Shown here piece by piece: positions 4,915 to 52,334 of a stretch of DNA of 52,334 bases. The number at the start of each line of letters is the position of its first letter. The first letter of the stretch is position 1. The DNA lies in NCBI GenBank assembly GCA_964391885.1, contig CAYMNU010000082.1, positions 1 to 52,334 on the forward strand, written 5' to 3'. The translations under genes were made by a program, and so were the position numbers. A model generated the notes under the pieces. It was not told the DNA's origin. It did not search any database and saw only the letters and a program-made list of their open reading frames with translations. The DNA is from an uncultured archaeon (GTDB taxonomy: Archaea > Altiarchaeota > Altiarchaeia > JAFGQM01).

Positions 4915-5685
4915 TTATTCTTCTGCCAATTCAACAGCGTCGTTTTTCAGCAATATCTCGGCTATCTCATCATCCAGCTCGATTACCTGCCCCTCTTCAA
5001 AAGGCCCAAGCGAAGAGAGGTCCGGGCCGACGAATGCGGGCATGTTCCTCAGAAACCTGACCCTTGAAAGCGCTTTATTTTCAGTTTCGGCTTTAAAAAC
5101 CTCTTGTTTCTCTAGAGGGGCTGCTTCGGCAGGCTTTTCGGCAGGAGCCTGTGCATCGGCATCGCCGACCGAACAGCTAAGCGAGCCGTCCTTCTCCTCG
5201 CATAGCGCCTCTCTGCGAGCAGGCATTTTCACGTCTTCAGAGCCCTCGGAGTCTTTGGCCGCTCCATGCCCGGCTTTGGGCGCTTCAGGAGTCTCCTGAG
5301 CGCTCTGTTCTTCGTCCTGTGCTTCCTCCTGTACCTCTTCCTGCGACTCCTCTTCCACCTGCACTTCTTCCTCAGCTTCTTCTACATGGGTGCCTGCCCT
5401 CAGTGCCGCAAGCTCGCTTCGTATCGTTTTATACGCGGATTTCTCAGGAGGCAAAAGATTTTCCGGACCGTCGTTGCCGGATATCTCCCTAAGGCAGCCC
5501 ATGAGCATCTTGTGCTGGCGCATATGGACTATGTCATTGTAGAGATCCGTCGCCTTCTTGGCCTCATAGGGGTCCCCTTTGTGCATAAGAGCCTCGGAAT
5601 CGTTATAAAAATGGGGCGGCATCTTGGCAGGCTGCGAAGCGCTCTTCTCTGCCCTCCATAATTTCAAAAGCTCGGAAATGTCCAT
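4915..5685 (-). CDS. GINS15/GINS51-like DNA replication protein
   Basis: Helical N-domain, long acidic linker, C-terminal B domain 'RVRFLRNMPAFVGPDLSSLGPFEEGQVIELDDEIAEILLKNDAVE'. Confidence 0.8.
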   Translation of the reverse strand: MDISELLKLWRAEKSASQPAKMPPHFYNDSEALMHKGDPYEAKKATDLYNDIVHMRQHKMLMGCLREISGNDGPENLLPPEKSAYKTIRSELAALRAGTHVEEAEEEVQVEEESQEEVQEEAQDEEQSAQETPEAPKAGHGAAKDSEGSEDVKMPARREALCEEKDGSLSCSVGDADAQAPAEKPAEAAPLEKQEVFKAETENKALSRVRFLRNMPAFVGPDLSSLGPFEEGQVIELDDEIAEILLKNDAVELAEE

Positions 5686-47011: not shown

Positions 47012-47045
47012 ATAGCGTGAAAATGCGGTACTTTAGAAGAATCGC

Positions 47046-47062
47046 TTTAAAAAGCTTTTCGG
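47046..47062 (-). promoter_or_regulatory. BRE + TATA of the RNAP operon
   Basis: Minus strand CCGAAAAG-C-TTTTTAAA, nearly identical to the tfb promoter. Confidence 0.75.
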
Positions 47063-47070
47063 TTTTTGAG
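47060..47070 (+). repeat. Left target-site duplication CGGTTTTTGAG
   Basis: Identical 11-mer at 52242-52252; each copy abuts a TIR. Confidence 0.9.
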
Positions 47071-47100
47071 GCTTTGTAGATAAAGTACATGAATCAGTCG

Positions 47101-47135
47101 ACTTTTTCTACACATGGGGCACTTTATCTACAGAA
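47101..47135 (+). repeat. Left subterminal repeat pair ACTTTTTCTACA-N8-ACTTTATCTACAGAA
   Basis: Same arrangement, with the same 8-nt spacing, at 52188-52222. Confidence 0.9.
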
Positions 47136-47138
47136 CCA

Positions 47139-48275
47139 CTAACGAGCCATTATCTCCTTGACATCAGATAAGACATCTCCAACTTCCTTCTCAACACGGT
47201 TTTTGGTTTTATAATATGGGGCCAATCCAGAATCATTGTTGCTTTCCATATTCCTAGTTATGGTCTTAGTCTCTGTCCTCTCGTTAATAAGTCGATCAAC
47301 ACGTAATTGGTTATAAACTTGCACTGCGCTTCCATTAGTAAGTGATGAATCTAAATTAAGTCCTGAATTTTTAATAGTGCCTAGTTGATAAGCCCCGTAA
47401 TCTTCAATATTGAAGTACCTGAGCTTCTCATAAATTAGTTTACCACCACCCCAAATAACTCCACTAGTGCTGTCTATACCATAAGCAGGAATTAGTAATT
47501 CAGTTATTGGGGCAACTTCATTGCTCGTTTTTTTATTTGGAGGTACATCAAATATATGTAAGAAATATTGTTTATCAATATCTTCTCCAACTTTACTCTT
47601 AATCTTTAATCGACTTCGGATTAAGTACACTGTAGTTCGTATTAAGGCGCGATCTAAGGGGGAACTTGAAAAATCAACTGCAAAGAATCGGATGCCGTCT
47701 TTGATATAAGTGTCTATCATTTCAGGCAAAATTCTAAATTCCGCAGTTCGAGGAATATATCCAACTATCTCTTTATTATTTGAAGTTTGGTTATCAATTT
47801 TGGTTCTCTTGTATACCTGTCTAAAGACATTAATACTCTTTAATCCTGTTGGAAGTGGTGGTATGATGAGATCACATCCGGCATCACGTTGTGTGGATAG
47901 TAAGTTTATAGTCTGTATTTCACTAACCTTTTCTACCGGCACTGTTATCTCACCAACCTTATGTTGGTGGGGTATTCTTGTAAATACCAAGTTAATTTTG
48001 CCCTTAATAGTCTTGTTACTAAGTCGCTTAAGTAATCCATCTCTAGATAACCTATTATTTTCTAGTCCAGAGAATGTTAAATAATTCAAGGATTCCCCAG
48101 CTACAACCAGATTTGTTTTGTCAATTTCCTTCCTACATCCCAACGCCTCAGCAATGTCTAAATCTCTTTTAGTTATTGCATGAGTTGGGGTGGTTATCTC
48201 AATACCATTAATTTTGAGAGTTGTTGCATGGGCGAGAGTATTCATCGCTTCTTCTGCAAACCAATCTATATCCAT
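47139..48275 (-). CDS. TGT-like (tRNA-guanine transglycosylase-related) TIM-barrel protein, function unknown
   Basis: N-terminal 'TLKINGIEITTP', then 'DLIIPP', 'IVGYIP', 'FAVDF', 'LHIF', 'AYGIDS' in TGT order; no Zn-binding Cys motif. The fold is inferred. Confidence 0.55.
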   Translation of the reverse strand: MDIDWFAEEAMNTLAHATTLKINGIEITTPTHAITKRDLDIAEALGCRKEIDKTNLVVAGESLNYLTFSGLENNRLSRDGLLKRLSNKTIKGKINLVFTRIPHQHKVGEITVPVEKVSEIQTINLLSTQRDAGCDLIIPPLPTGLKSINVFRQVYKRTKIDNQTSNNKEIVGYIPRTAEFRILPEMIDTYIKDGIRFFAVDFSSSPLDRALIRTTVYLIRSRLKIKSKVGEDIDKQYFLHIFDVPPNKKTSNEVAPITELLIPAYGIDSTSGVIWGGGKLIYEKLRYFNIEDYGAYQLGTIKNSGLNLDSSLTNGSAVQVYNQLRVDRLINERTETKTITRNMESNNDSGLAPYYKTKNRVEKEVGDVLSDVKEIMAR

Positions 48276-48326
48276 TTTACGAAGTTGTTTTCACCTCGTA
48301 ATTTTAGATGTTATGGGTATAAAAAC

Positions 48327-48470
48327 CTATCGTTGGTTCCTTTGAATCTCTCGAAGAAGCGCAGTCTCAGCAAAATCACTTATTTTTAGATTATGGTCTA
48401 ATGCGCTTCTTTTCACCTGCATCCATATATCGGGCTCTATCCTCATACTTATGGTAATTTTTTGTTCCAT
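48327..48470 (-). CDS. 47-aa RHH regulator (not in ORF track)
   Basis: MEQKITISMRIEPDIWMQVKRSALDHNLKISDFAETALLREIQRNQR*. Confidence 0.8.
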   Translation of the reverse strand: MEQKITISMRIEPDIWMQVKRSALDHNLKISDFAETALLREIQRNQR

Positions 48471-48482
48471 TTTGGTTAAAAT

Positions 48483-48535
48483 GTAATAATTATTACCTCG
48501 TTATTACAAAAAACTTTGTAATAATGTAATAATTA
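48483..48535. promoter_or_regulatory. Operator-like array of GTAATAA half-sites
   Basis: Perfect palindrome GTAATAATTATTAC (48483-48496), IR TTATTACAAA/TTTGTAATAA (48501-48524), and ATGTAATAATTA repeated twice. Confidence 0.65.
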
Positions 48536-48568
48536 ATATTTTCTCATACGTATATAAAAATGGAAGGT

Positions 48569-49795
48569 TTAATAAAAATCAATTTCGAACTCAAACATAC
48601 TCTGAATCAAAACACAAATATTATGGCATAGTATCTTGCAGAGTACCTCGTTCATCTGCGCCACTTTCGTCTTACTCCTCACAGAATCCCCAAACTTCGA
48701 CTTTATCATGTGAAACGTAGTCTCCACGTTGCTTCTCTTGTGGTAGTGCTGCATGAATTGATCATTATTCAGTTGAAAGTAATGGTACATCTTCTTCCAA
48801 ATCTCATGGCCTGACCTATTCGTAGTCCTAATCCTTGCCGGATTTGTTGAAACGTTCGTCTTGAACGGAATGTATGGTGTAGCTCCAAGATCGTCCACAA
48901 GCTTTAGGTTCATCTTGGATGAGTAGGCCTTGTCTGCGCTTACCTCACTTATCCGAAAGTTTTCAGCGGTTTTCTTGACAAGAGGCTCAAACTGCGGCGA
49001 GTCGCTGCCGTAGGCGTCTGTGAGCTCGACCCCAGTCACGATGTTTGTCCTTACTCCGCACATTAAGTGCGTTTTGATCCAAATACGCTCAACACGTTCA
49101 CGCCCGTACTTGTAATCAAACCAGCGATCGAACCTACCTGTTGAAAACCCGCTGGAATCAACGGCAAAGTCTCTTTCTATTCCTTTTAGCGGCAGACTGC
49201 TCCTAACTATTAACTCCTTAAGTATTAGTGTTAAGTCTTCATCCATTAAGTAGTTTGAAACGGATGTGTAGTGGGGAACCTTACTTATAAGCCCCTTTTC
49301 CTTGGCTGTTTTCATATCGCTGGTAAATCTTCTGTGTGAGTATCCAGAGTAAACCTTGAACGCAGAGCAGAATACCATATCTGCCTTAGAAAGTTTTGGT
49401 CTGCCAAATGTATATTTCTCGTTTGGAATACTCTGACAGAGTTCGCCTAGCAACTCCAAGAACATCTCCCTTTCCTTTGTTTGAGCCTTGTCGTAGTTTG
49501 GCCAATCTTGGCCATAAGTTATCTTGACTGTCTTTGTGATAGTCTTTCTGCCTTCCTTGTCAACCGCCTTCTTGAGCAGATATTCTACAGCCCAAATATG
49601 CTTGCACTTGACGTCCCTCGTCTGGCAATCTGGACAGGAGCAAGTCGGATGATGGTCATCCAGCTTGACCTTGTATCTGCTTGGCCCGCCCTGTGCCGGG
49701 ACGAGAAAGGAGTTCGGCGAAACCTGCGTTATGCGGCTGGTGTTCGCAATCTCCAACCCTCTCAGTTGTCTTCCTTCTGTAGTTCTCATTTCCAT
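48569..49795 (-). CDS. DDE transposase (DDE_Tnp_1, IS4/IS5-superfamily-like) with N-terminal SWIM Zn finger
   Basis: SWIM 'CSCPDCQTRDVKCKH'; triad 'AVDSSGF', 'SADKAY', 'YHKRSNVET'; ORF intact. Confidence 0.92.
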   Translation of the reverse strand: MEMRTTEGRQLRGLEIANTSRITQVSPNSFLVPAQGGPSRYKVKLDDHHPTCSCPDCQTRDVKCKHIWAVEYLLKKAVDKEGRKTITKTVKITYGQDWPNYDKAQTKEREMFLELLGELCQSIPNEKYTFGRPKLSKADMVFCSAFKVYSGYSHRRFTSDMKTAKEKGLISKVPHYTSVSNYLMDEDLTLILKELIVRSSLPLKGIERDFAVDSSGFSTGRFDRWFDYKYGRERVERIWIKTHLMCGVRTNIVTGVELTDAYGSDSPQFEPLVKKTAENFRISEVSADKAYSSKMNLKLVDDLGATPYIPFKTNVSTNPARIRTTNRSGHEIWKKMYHYFQLNNDQFMQHYHKRSNVETTFHMIKSKFGDSVRSKTKVAQMNEVLCKILCHNICVLIQSMFEFEIDFY

Positions 49796-49882
49796 TCTTT
49801 GTAAATATTTGTATATATTTTAGAAGTTACTCCTATAAAAACCTTTACAAAGATTTATATAGGGAGAACTTCTAGATTAGGT

Positions 49883-50035
49883 ATGGAAAAAAGCACTAAG
49901 TTCGTAAAAGAAGTCATCGAGCTTACTAAACCCCCATATGTGACCCTTGCGGTCTCCATACCCTCAAAAGACGCCAAAAAGCTAGGGCTGAAGAAAGGTT
50001 CAAAGGTCATGGTTACCATCAATAAGTTTGAATAG
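49883..50035 (+). CDS. 50-aa AbrB/MazE/SpoVT-like regulator (not in ORF track)
   Basis: MEKSTKFVKEVIELTKPPYVTLAVSIPSKDAKKLGLKKGSKVMVTINKFE*; stops 6 nt before the MTase. Confidence 0.8.
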   Translation: MEKSTKFVKEVIELTKPPYVTLAVSIPSKDAKKLGLKKGSKVMVTINKFE

Positions 50036-50041
50036 TCTACA

Positions 50042-51049
50042 ATGGGGGATCGGGAAAGGTATACGGTAATTGAGCTCTTTGCAGGGGCAGGTGGGCTTGC
50101 ACTAGGCTTTGAAAGTGCTGGTTTTGAGTCAAAGCTTCTTGTTGAGATAGATAGGTATTGTGTGGAGACACTAAAGCTCAACAGGCCTAATTGGAATGTA
50201 TTACATAAGGACATAAAAGAGATTGACTTCAAGGGTATGACTGCCGATGTTGTAACCGGTGGCTTTCCATGCCAGGCATTTAGCCATGCAGGCAAGAAAC
50301 TAGGTTTTGAGGACACCCGTGGAACTTTATTTTTTGACTTTGCACGTTGTGTAAAGGAAGTCCAACCTAGGATATTTGTTGGTGAGAATGTGGAGGGGCT
50401 AGCACGACATGACGGAGGGAAAACCCTTAAGACAATACTCAGCGTCCTTAAGTCGTTTGGCTACAATGTGCAGTATAAGGTATTGAATGCCTTAGATTAT
50501 GGGGTCGCCCAGAAAAGGAAACGTATAGTCATAGTGGGAACAAAAGATGGGATCTCCTTCTCCTTCCCACATCCAAATAGCAATAGAATTACATTAAGGG
50601 AGGCTCTGAAGGATGCCCCCCCATCAGATGGTGTCAAATATCCAGAGAAACGAAAGAAGGTATTGGATTTAGTGCCCCCTGGAGGGTGTTGGGTTAACTT
50701 ACCTGAAGATGTAAAAAAGGAGTACATGGGCGCTAGCTATTATTCAGGTGGTGGCCGGAGGGGTATGGCAAGACGGCTATCTTGGGATGAGCCTTGCTTA
50801 ACCCTAACTACATCACCTTACCAAAAGTTTACCGAAAGGTGCCATCCAGAAGAGACTAGACCATTTACAGTCAGGGAATATGCAAGAATACAATCATTCC
50901 CGGATGAATGGGAATTTGTCGGGGGCATTGGTGCACAGTATAAGCAAATAGGCAATGCTGTGCCAGTGAAGCTTGCTGAAGCAGTTGGCAAGTCAGTAAT
51001 GGCAGCTTTAAAGGGCAAGTCTAAAAACCCATTATATGGAAGCAATTAA
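50042..51049 (+). CDS. DNA (cytosine-5) methyltransferase
   Basis: Motifs I 'FAGAGG', IV 'GGFPCQ', VI 'ENV', VIII 'QKRKR', IX 'TVREYARIQSFPD', X 'QIGNAVP'. Confidence 0.97.
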   Translation: MGDRERYTVIELFAGAGGLALGFESAGFESKLLVEIDRYCVETLKLNRPNWNVLHKDIKEIDFKGMTADVVTGGFPCQAFSHAGKKLGFEDTRGTLFFDFARCVKEVQPRIFVGENVEGLARHDGGKTLKTILSVLKSFGYNVQYKVLNALDYGVAQKRKRIVIVGTKDGISFSFPHPNSNRITLREALKDAPPSDGVKYPEKRKKVLDLVPPGGCWVNLPEDVKKEYMGASYYSGGGRRGMARRLSWDEPCLTLTTSPYQKFTERCHPEETRPFTVREYARIQSFPDEWEFVGGIGAQYKQIGNAVPVKLAEAVGKSVMAALKGKSKNPLYGSN

Positions 51050-51738
51050 AATGCAGCTTGGAGGAAATGGCTCAAGAGTTGCTTATCTCCCTCTGTAAAC
51101 TCAACACCGACCCCTACAACCTCCATAATCGCCTTAGGCAAGGCAACAGCAAGTTCATCTAAGGCATTTGGATTTCCAGTTACTAACGTATATACATCCT
51201 TACCAAATACCTTATAAAGTCGGGGTGTGGTAACACCTAGATATTTAAAGGGTATTGTCCCTGATTTGCCGCTCTTTGTTATGATAAACGCATAATAGGC
51301 CTTTGCATTTGGGTATTTTTCTAAAACCCTAGCTAATTTATTCCTAGTTCCTTCCATAGCTGCAGAGTTAACTGTATTATGTTTGTTTTTCAGTTCAATG
51401 AAGATAGTATTGTCCTCCTTCTTTAGGTCAACCTCACACTTGTCTCCCACACCAAGATCGACCCAACCCTCAACACCTCCCAAAAGTCTTTGGTGGAAGT
51501 TCCCAGTTGCATTGTTTATTGTCTTGTCATTTTGCCTGATTACTTCATCTCTAGTCCACGCTTCAACACCAACCCCTTTAATACAACAATCAAAAAGAAC
51601 CTTGAATGGGTCAACAGTATTTTTTTCTATGCCTCTAGTTTCAGGCGGACCTTCTGGATCAGGATATACTGAGGTTACCTCCTTGATACATTGCAAGAGA
51701 TGGGCATCAGATATGTACTTGAGGTATTTATTGGACAT
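51046..51738 (-). CDS. Type II restriction endonuclease, Eco47II/Sau96I-like
   Basis: 'DKTINNATGNFHQ', 'VDL...FIELKNKHNTVNS'; convergent with the MTase. Confidence 0.85.
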   Translation of the reverse strand: MSNKYLKYISDAHLLQCIKEVTSVYPDPEGPPETRGIEKNTVDPFKVLFDCCIKGVGVEAWTRDEVIRQNDKTINNATGNFHQRLLGGVEGWVDLGVGDKCEVDLKKEDNTIFIELKNKHNTVNSAAMEGTRNKLARVLEKYPNAKAYYAFIITKSGKSGTIPFKYLGVTTPRLYKVFGKDVYTLVTGNPNALDELAVALPKAIMEVVGVGVEFTEGDKQLLSHFLQAAF

Positions 51739-51780
51739 TTTCCTAGGCTGAAACTTAATAATCGGATTAATAAAAACAAC

Positions 51781-52185
51781 ATGGTCGATAAATTTGATAA
51801 AGAGACTAGAAGTAGGATAATGTCGAGGATACGTTCAGAGGATACCACCATAGAAGTTAACTTCAGAAAAGCCCTATGGGCAGAGGGCTTACACTACAGG
51901 ACACATTATAAGACTAGTGTCGGGAAACCCGATATTGTTTTCCCCGGGAAGAAGGTTGTAATCTTTGTTGATGGGGATTTCTGGCATGGATATAATTGGA
52001 AGAAGTTAGGGAAAGTACCACCAAGGGGGTTCTGGCAAGAGAAAATAGAGCGCAATATGGCTAGGGATAAAATGCAGACACGACAGCTCAGAAGGGATGG
52101 CTGGACTGTCCTACGCTTCTGGGAACATGAACTTAAGGAAAATATGGATTCATGTGTTAAGAAAGTCAATAAGACGCTCGAATAG
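51781..52185 (+). CDS. vsr: Very short patch repair endonuclease
   Basis: 'RSRIMSRIRSEDT', 'GKPDIVF', 'FVDGDFWHG', 'FWQEKIERNMARD', 'GWTVLRFWEH'. Start at ATG 51781. Confidence 0.95.
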   Translation: MVDKFDKETRSRIMSRIRSEDTTIEVNFRKALWAEGLHYRTHYKTSVGKPDIVFPGKKVVIFVDGDFWHGYNWKKLGKVPPRGFWQEKIERNMARDKMQTRQLRRDGWTVLRFWEHELKENMDSCVKKVNKTLE

Positions 52186-52187
52186 TA

Positions 52188-52241
52188 ACTTTTTCTACAA
52201 AATCCCGACTTTATCTACAGAAGGAACTTTTTCTACAAAGC
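52188..52241 (+). repeat. Right end: three ACTTT(T/A)TCTACA copies, the last forming the TIR
   Basis: Copies at 52188-52199, 52208-52219 and 52226-52237. Confidence 0.9.
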
Positions 52242-52252
52242 CGGTTTTTGAG
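52242..52252 (+). repeat. Right target-site duplication CGGTTTTTGAG
   Basis: Identical to 47060-47070. Confidence 0.9.
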
Positions 52253-52262
52253 CAGTTCCAAA

Positions 52263-52334
52263 TCACTTCCAAGTCGAGAAAGTGACTTCTCTGGTAACCC
52301 TTGTGGTGGGGTATATCCTCTCGCTGAGTTCGTC
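52263..52334 (-). CDS. Possible 3' end of a host gene running off the window
   Basis: Open frame ...DELSERIYPTTRVTREVTFSTWK*; too short to identify. Confidence 0.3.
   Translation of the reverse strand, partial: DELSERIYPTTRVTREVTFSTWK

Follow-up and report, generated by a model that had tools for sequence, protein, structure and literature searches.

The 52,334-nt window analysed here, which is the whole of contig C82 of a 1.13-Mb, 86-contig metagenome-assembled genome (MAG), very probably carries at positions 47070–52242 an autonomous unit (non-composite) DNA transposon, one of a large clade of IS903 relatives (IS5 family). The 5,173-bp element lies between the stop codon of ndk and the rpoH–rpoB operon of an archaeal host. 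It has one transposase gene, a single pair of terminal inverted repeats (TIRs) around its passenger genes and a target site duplication (TSD) outside the TIRs; the first-pass annotation of the window was right in describing a non-composite unit with a central transposase and cargo on both sides. Relatives of the transposase were found within the same TIR/TSD frame in archaea and bacteria, every time together with cargo.

Ends of the element

The window holds two copies of the direct repeat CGGTTTTTGAG, at 47060–47070 and 52242–52252, with GCTTTGTAGATAAAGT at 47071–47086 and ACTTTTTCTACAAAGC at 52226–52241. The first-pass annotation had taken them for an 11-bp TSD and 16-bp TIRs that bound 5,171 bp; the repeats and their places stand, the partition does not. 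A repeat search of the window returned a terminal inverted pair of 17 nt (47070–47086 and 52226–52242) that is complementary at 16 of 17 positions (94%), and since 44 bounded elements of the family (see below) show a GGCTTTG... terminus together with a 9-bp duplication, we divide the ends into 17-bp TIRs (GGCTTTGTAGATAAAGT at end B and ACTTTTTCTACAAAGCC at end A) and a 9-bp TSD, GGTTTTTGA. In each copy, the 11-bp repeat takes in one further base at either side: the TIR's outermost base (G or C) and, opposite it, a flank base that matches by chance (C...G). The combination of TIR and TSD is far beyond chance: when the flanks were shuffled 300 times, no TIR adjoining an exact 9-bp direct repeat did better than 11/17, compared with the 16/17 observed.

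The ends are further marked by the 12-mer ACTTTWTCTACA, which has six copies in the window (0.4 expected) and six in the entire genome, all of them at the two ends of the element, where three copies per end form an asymmetric layout. The GC content of the element is 40.6%, that of the rest of the contig 50.2%. In the mechanism that we propose, the transposase would bind the three 12-mers at each end and pair both GGCTTTG termini, the excised element would be joined to a target cut with a 9-bp stagger, and repair of the staggered cut would leave the duplication GGTTTTTGA.

A family of cargo-carrying elements

Homologs of the transposase number more than 7,400, and its relatives span DPANN archaea, methanogens and several bacterial phyla; the family is not confined to archaea of this kind. 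We retrieved 83 loci (three through exact look-ups, the other 80 out of species-representative genomes), which makes 84 with the window, and considered an element bounded if an exact 9-bp direct repeat adjoined an inverted repeat that enclosed the transposase and matched at no fewer than 12 of 17 positions. By this rule 44 of the 84 loci (27 archaeal and 17 bacterial, the window counted) hold bounded elements. All 44 share the terminus GGCTTTG(T/C)...AAGT, their lengths range from 1.8 to 11.4 kb (median 5.2 kb), and all carry cargo, with no bare insertion sequence (IS) among them. Homologs at distant flanks within the same TIR/TSD frame, with variable and mostly restriction–modification (R-M) cargo, are what the first-pass annotation had proposed to look for.

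The layout of three plus three 12-mers is conserved in the family. One end has its copies at +6, +24 and +44 with a single orientation; at the opposite end the 12-mer of the terminus is inverted and the two subterminal copies are opposite to it. A minority of elements show the mirror image of this arrangement with respect to the transposase gene. A small gene divergent from the transposase gene, encoding a protein of the ribbon–helix–helix (RHH), AbrB, zinc-ribbon or helix–turn–helix type, is present in 39 of the 44 elements. In about a dozen elements the transposase gene ends 69–105 bp from one terminus with all cargo upstream of it; others, including the one in the window, have cargo on both sides. 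Locus L004 shows no GGCTTTG ends, and the 28-nt inverted repeat at its contig edges was rejected as its terminus: it follows the C-terminus of an apparently unrelated (IS1595-type) transposase, as judged from the sequence alone, and probably comes from flanking copies of another IS.

Five loci (L070, L081, L075, L047 and L014) adjoin the end of another member in the arrangement ...CAAAGCC-9 bp-GGCTTTG.... The spacing between the abutting ends is exactly the length of the TSD, as if ends were preferred targets or tandem arrays were formed.

Transposase and its kinship with IS903

The transposase gene is single-copy in the genome. Its product matches the Pfam families SWIM and DDE_Tnp_1 (PF01609, 7.3e-25), which bears out the earlier description of a protein that fuses SWIM and DDE. 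Its SWIM finger lies on the N-terminal side (residues 41–74, with zinc ligands C52, C54, C64 and H66), and the catalytic residues are D213, D288 and E358, the last being part of a Y-x2-R-x3-E-x6-K signature (Y351, R354, E358, K365). The catalytic D213, D288 and E358, the signature residues Y351, R354 and K365 and the four zinc ligands are invariant in 26 homologs. In a tblastn search, in which IS903B transposases were the best annotated relatives, residues 79–392 aligned with the IS903B transposase over nearly its full length (23% identity, E 2e-14), with the DDE residues and the Y-x2-R-x3-E-x6-K signature in register. The IS903B inverted repeat is GGCTTTGTTGAATAAATC and its direct repeat 9 bp (PMC10569121), and we saw these ends and the 9-bp repeat directly in a plasmid copy. 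NCBI gives the name 'IS5 family transposase' to some homologs of the transposase, which come from DPANN archaea, Halobacteriota and bacteria.

Because of the GGCTTTG ends, the 9-bp TSD, the catalytic core and the NCBIfam scores given below, the transposition module is placed as a divergent relative of the IS903 group (IS5 family) with an added N-terminal zinc finger, and not as an IS4-like one. It does not make a simple IS (~1 kb, a single open reading frame (ORF) of ~300–320 aa, no passengers), as the element measures 5,173 bp, with a 408-aa transposase and six further genes. A Mutator-like (MULE, IS256-related) SWIM transposase was also considered and ruled out: DDE_Tnp_1 forms the catalytic domain, the SWIM finger precedes this domain instead of following it, and there was no MULE match.

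Cargo genes

The cargo listed in the first-pass annotation (genes for an AbrB-like protein, a C5 cytosine methyltransferase (C5-MTase), an Eco47II-type restriction endonuclease, Vsr, an RHH-like protein and a protein like tRNA-guanine transglycosylase (TGT)) was borne out (Table 1). When 149 cargo ORFs (≥100 aa) from 43 elements were scanned against Pfam, R-M components proved to dominate in the family: N6_Mtase was found 14 times, Eco57I 11, N6_N4_Mtase seven, MmeI_Mtase five and C5 methylase four times. Further cargo includes HsdS, HsdR N-terminal domains, PD-(D/E)XK, ResIII, Vsr, Mrr and TaqI_C, along with single cases of TOTE AEP, SocA/Panacea, IrrE and ClpP. The transposases of the closest relatives are 74–77% identical to that of the window at the protein level, and at the DNA level these elements have only the AbrB–transposase core in common with it (71–75% identity). 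L004 carries an HpaII-type R-M system and Vsr, L002 another C5-MTase set and ClpP, and L003 uncharacterised genes. The shared core and the differing cargo show that cargo has been exchanged on a conserved core.

In the window element, the C5-MTase, the RE_Eco47II endonuclease and Vsr occur together as an Eco47II-type R-M system, whose recognition site is probably GGNCC. This module probably defends the host and, through post-segregational killing, helps to keep the element stable. GGNCC is mildly under-represented in the host genome (observed/expected 0.83, compared with 0.96–0.97 for control palindromes), and the element itself has three GGNCC sites where 7.8 are expected. Vsr is called as a 134-aa protein in loci L095 and L102 as well.

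The AbrB-like protein is 96% identical to its counterpart in L004 and 78% identical to that in L003, both encoded at the same position, and probably regulates the transposase gene, the R-M genes or both. An equivalent of the palindrome in the control region is present in L004. In six other loci, the slot upstream of and divergent from the transposase gene is taken by homologs of the 47-aa RHH-like protein of the window. A 28-nt TATA-containing block occurs twice with 82% identity, before the transposase gene (49817–49844) and before the TGT-like gene (48301–48328), so that the two genes may use one type of promoter.

The 378-aa cargo protein had no match in Pfam, NCBIfam or PADLOC and no sequence match in the PDB. 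Its AlphaFold2 model (pLDDT 92) was used for a Foldseek search, in which the top 50 hits were all TGT, QTRT/QTRT2 or ArcTGT (E down to 2e-9, TM 0.44–0.60); the matches to TGT, QTRT2 and ArcTGT with E 2e-9 had TM 0.55–0.6. The protein is thus modelled as a TGT fold. It has 46 homologs; among 35 homologs no Cys is invariant, and the zinc-binding Cys/His cluster is absent. A DpdA assignment was ruled out, since there was neither a PADLOC match to DpdA nor a zinc site. The TGT-like gene is paired with a gene for a 47- or 48-aa RHH-like protein in L096, L097 and L099. In L096 the pair lies downstream of the transposase gene of another element (4,395 bp, TSD CTCCGGCAG) with a BglII-type R-M system. 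TGT-fold genes were also found outside transposons, in L098 (7001–8143) without the partner and in L099 (6826–8690) with a 48-aa partner. This distribution suggests a self-contained module, and the TGT-fold protein with its RHH-like partner is a candidate for a new nucleic-acid-modification or defence system. In L099 the TGT-fold gene is followed by a gene for a 186-aa protein.

Table 1. Coordinates of the transposon, its genes and its target site in the window
Feature	Position	Strand	Basis or remarks
rpoH core promoter, undamaged by the insertion	47045..47060	-	GAAAAG (BRE-like, 47060-47055), then CTTTTTAAAG (TATA-like, 47054-47045)
Left copy of the TSD, GGTTTTTGA	47061..47069	.	Sequence and family rule
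TIR of end B, GGCTTTGTAGATAAAGT	47070..47086	+	Repeat search; family-wide terminus GGCTTTG
Two subterminal 12-mers of end B (47101-47112, 47121-47132), opposite to the terminal copy	47101..47132	+	Presumed transposase-binding sites; layout conserved in the family
378-aa cargo protein, TGT-like TIM-barrel fold (predicted)	47139..48275	-	AlphaFold2 and Foldseek
47-aa RHH-like cargo protein, partner of the TGT-like gene	48327..48470	-	No HMM match; homologs in the small-gene slot
Transposase, 408 aa, SWIM and IS903-type DDE domains	48569..49795	-	Profile matches, IS903B alignment
Divergent control region between transposase and AbrB-like genes, nested palindromes TCTTTGTAAA...TTTACAAAGA	49796..49882	.	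Repeat search
AbrB/SpoVT-like 50-aa protein, slot divergent from transposase	49883..50035	+	Weak HMM matches, below cut-off
C5 cytosine DNA methyltransferase	50042..51049	+	PF00145 4.8e-86; TIGR00675; PADLOC MTase_II
Eco47II-family type II restriction endonuclease	51046..51738	-	PF09553 1.9e-47; PADLOC REase_II
Vsr, 134 aa from an internal ATG (longest ORF from 51691)	51781..52185	+	PF03852 1.6e-29; TIGR00632; PADLOC Vsr
Two subterminal 12-mers of end A (52188-52199, 52208-52219), same sense as the terminal copy	52188..52219	+	
TIR of end A, ACTTTTTCTACAAAGCC	52226..52242	+	Sequence and repeat search
Right copy of the TSD, GGTTTTTGA	52243..52251	.	ndk stop codon ~15 nt beyond; continues in contig C6

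Target choice

Towards rpoH, the TSD is followed by GAAAAG CTTTTTAAAG, which resembles an archaeal core promoter with a TFB-recognition element (BRE) and a TATA box. The TSD lies directly upstream of these motifs, and the insertion thereby spares the host promoter. Of the 27 archaeal elements, 21 (that of the window included) have on at least one flank a TATA-like motif that starts between +5 and +8 of the TSD (mode +6), as against 2.2% of random sites in the same loci and 3.3% of sites outside long ORFs (P ~1e-26). None of the 17 bacterial elements has a TATA-like motif in this register. The promoter-edge position suggests a safe-harbour strategy in compact genomes.

Five bacterial elements (L029, L055, L060, L069 and L079), from Dehalococcoidia, Chloroflexi, a deltaproteobacterium and Pirellulales, lie in the middle of similar GC-rich palindromes, CCCTCTCC-N-GGAGAGGG, with the TSD as the loop. 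This suggests that bacterial members target hairpins, REP sequences or terminators.

How the promoter edge is chosen bears on the mechanism of targeting and not on the identity of the element. We incline slightly to the view that the position reflects an inherited IS903 flank preference together with selection against genic insertions, rather than recognition of the promoter or of a factor bound to it. The target motif of IS903, WTTYA-N9-TRAAW (PMC2577343), consists of A/T-rich flanks around the 9-bp duplication, and the base flanks in the family are YTTTY-N9-RAAAR, a likeness by which the targeting may elaborate an inherited sequence preference. The abutment of several elements on the CAAAGCC end of another and the use of GC-rich palindromes by bacterial members point the same way. 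On the other side, the match is mostly limited to one flank, where it runs into and through the TATA box in a fixed register with its mode at +6, and a frequency of 78% is set against the 3.3% of the null outside long ORFs.

A bolder possibility, which we regard as rather doubtful, is that the clade uses the archaeal pre-initiation complex (TBP/TFB on TATA/BRE, or the DNA shape imposed there) as an integration landmark, with the cut made at the upstream edge of the BRE and recognition through the SWIM finger or the asymmetric ends. It would then be the first lineage of prokaryotic DNA transposons to do so and a dedicated, cross-domain vehicle for R-M systems that spares genes where genomes are very compact. 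Placement at the BRE/TATA edge could yield a promoter-directed, gene-sparing integration tool for archaea.

Insertion locus and host

The last 99 nt of the window (52236–52334) are identical to the first 99 nt of contig C6 (C6:1–99), which joins the two contigs and carries the right flank onwards. The left flank contains rpoH and rpoB, and the right flank, in C6, contains ndk, trpA and trpB. The RpoB sequence is 82% identical to a partial protein of 'Candidatus Altiarchaeota' and 53–55% identical to those of other Altiarchaeota and Altiarchaeales, which identifies the host as an Altiarchaeota-like archaeon. The break between C82 and C6 was considered as a branch point between filled and empty alleles, a poor fit since the overlap begins 6 nt inside the element. 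As reconstructed, the empty site reads ...AAAAAGCTTTTC GGTTTTTGA GCAGTTCC....

In four family-level relatives (G003, G004, G005 and G007) rpoH and ndk are adjacent without a 5-kb insert, and the promoter-side flank ...TAAAAAGCTTTTCGGT is kept. One of them, G005, has a solo sequence that resembles the inverted repeat, GGCTTTGTGGCATTAAAC, directly after CGGTTTTGAG (L087, ~1620–1650, homologous to window positions 47050–47070), possibly the remnant of an earlier or independent insertion into the same site in a different genus. G005 also has at least four other, fragmented copies of the family. In G001, a member of the same genus, the spacer between rpoH and ndk holds an unrelated gene for a 277-aa protein in place of the transposon (L092:2166–2999), which marks this spacer as a variable spot.

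Six other assemblies from several samples have the element with 100% identity at the same site. In a further locus, L095, the element is 99.92% identical, with end B next to the rpoH flank and end A next to a different flank. Outward from end A this locus reads GATAGCACC / GAAAAGCTTTTTATAG, and its two flanking 9-mers differ. Its copy of the element differs from that of the window at four positions, each a G-to-A change, all in a 19-nt stretch of the TGT-like gene (window 47501–47519). Be L095 a recombinant or a chimeric assembly, a second insertion site is implied, and this one too has a promoter-like motif, a rare one in the host genome (five matches). On the end-A flank (L095:1–1060) there are an ORF of 92 aa and the N-terminal part of a protein that resembles a P-loop ATPase or helicase by its GSAGTGKT motif alone, both missing from this MAG. 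An exact-pattern scan of metagenome contigs gave no match to the end-B junction or to the alternative flank of L095, near-identical records possibly lying outside the set scanned, and exact look-ups of the relatives' flank proteins and of the 92-aa flank gene matched no record.

Five other assemblies (among them L102, L103, L105 and L106) break 61–120 nt outside end A. The repetition of such breaks hints at a junction that is polymorphic in the population. In L103, 28 nt are missing from the rpoH region (5357–5358), through either an indel variant or a fault of assembly, and the rpoH called there has 50 aa.

Alternative explanations

Several points weigh against the identification of the element as a mobile IS903-related transposon. 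The relatives that lack it are only 65–70% identical, so that they show its absence at the locus and not a base-perfect empty site, and the mismatched flanks of L095 may stem from a chimeric assembly. The SWIM match is weak (20.4 bits with a cut-off of 19.6), the identity to the IS903B transposase is only ~23%, the score of the transposase for NCBIfam IS5_2 (NF033579), 133.9 bits, is just under the cut-off of 140, and the AbrB-like HMM matches are below theirs. Finally, the element is single-copy in the MAG and occupies the same site in all six other assemblies, and it could thus be fixed and no longer moving.

This last point leads to the reading of the element as a fixed and immobile relic, whose transposase has been kept for another role (e.g. 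regulation) or which is itself too young to have decayed. Its lone copy and its identity across several samples are what such a relic would show, but we consider it unlikely: all catalytic and zinc-binding residues are intact, the TIRs still match at 16 of 17 positions around a perfect TSD, the GC content is 10 points under that of the host, L095 offers a second flank, and related genomes contain several diverged copies. The transposon may still be active at present.

It is very improbable that the element belongs to the IS4 family and made an 11-bp duplication, as the first-pass annotation had it. An 11-bp direct repeat is literally there and DDE_Tnp_1 is common to the IS4 and IS5 families, but the duplication throughout the family is 9 bp, compared with 10–13 bp in the IS4 and IS231 groups, the terminus begins with GG and not with the CT or CA of IS4-type ends, the score for NCBIfam IS4_1 (NF033592) is 36.8 bits with a cut-off of 115, as against 133.9 for IS5_2, and the best annotated tblastn relatives are IS903B transposases. 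That we are dealing with an ordinary small IS, consisting of the AbrB-like and transposase genes between ends of their own within a defence island, the outer TIR and direct repeat being coincidental or foreign, is hardly credible: the AbrB–transposase core is indeed all that the relatives share at the DNA level and there are palindromes immediately 5' of the transposase gene, but a repeat and motif scan of the window and the genome found no GGCTTTG-type end or 12-mer copy beside this core, which rules out hidden IS ends there, all six 12-mers are at the outer ends, the match of the outer TIR and TSD exceeds chance by far, and the same outer frame encloses cargo in 44 elements, none of them bare.

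Comparison with known systems

According to a survey published in 2019, no passenger-carrying DNA transposons had been detected in archaea (PMC6563490), and since then we found archaeal reports only of aloposons and of Tn7-family elements (bioRxiv 10.1101/2025.07.27.667033). The aloposons of Heimdallarchaeia (Wu et al. 2022, cited in PMC11529989) are archaeal cargo transposons too, but appear to be a different kind of element. A literature search returned no paper that describes a SWIM-bearing, cargo-carrying IS903-like clade. The first-pass claim that this is not a described family thus appears to hold for the clade and fails for its transposition module, which is of the known IS903 kind. The IS903-related, R-M-carrying family is widespread and apparently undescribed.

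Tn7-like elements with defence cargo (Benler et al. 2021, PMC8649781) resemble the transposon of the window in their cargo, in their controlled choice of target and in the multiple, asymmetric sites at their ends. They differ in having TnsA, TnsB and TnsC with target selectors, a 5-bp duplication and unrelated ends, whereas here there is a single IS903-type transposase. Alike as well are the R-M units within imperfect inverted repeats and a short duplication (Furuta, Abe and Kobayashi 2010, PMC2853133), but those are isolated bacterial cases, mostly without a transposase of their own, that were assigned to no family, in contrast to the autonomous and family-wide vehicle described here. How R-M systems move between genomes is a long-standing question, and a family of single-protein transposons appears to be a routine vehicle in archaea and bacteria. 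Transporter IS and mobile insertion cassettes, such as the IS231-derived MIC231, also have IS-type ends around passenger genes. They come from other IS families and their passengers are occasional, whereas in this clade passengers are the rule.

The closest likeness is to IS903 and IS903B, the enterobacterial IS that flanks Tn903, which have GGCTTTG TIRs of ~17–18 bp, a 9-bp duplication, aligned DDE and Y-x2-R-x3-E-x6-K residues and a preference for A/T-rich flanks. IS903 itself is 1,057 bp long and has one gene. Compared with it, the members of the clade have an N-terminal SWIM region of ~80 residues, three 12-mers per end and a divergent gene for a small DNA-binding protein; each bounded copy carries 0.5–10 kb of cargo, and archaeal members are positioned at the BRE/TATA edge. 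With its conserved, asymmetric three-plus-three ends and its N-terminal SWIM finger, the clade could be a simple model for the gain of new DNA recognition by an IS903-type enzyme.

The yeast retroelement Ty3, which has long terminal repeats and an integrase, integrates at the start sites of Pol III genes through TFIIIB, a complex that includes TBP and Brf1, the latter a homolog of TFB. Any likeness to the archaeal members of the clade would be a functional one only, namely a fixed position with respect to a TBP/TFB-type promoter complex that spares the genes. If the pre-initiation complex does serve as their landmark, they would be a prokaryotic analogue of Ty3/TFIIIB targeting.

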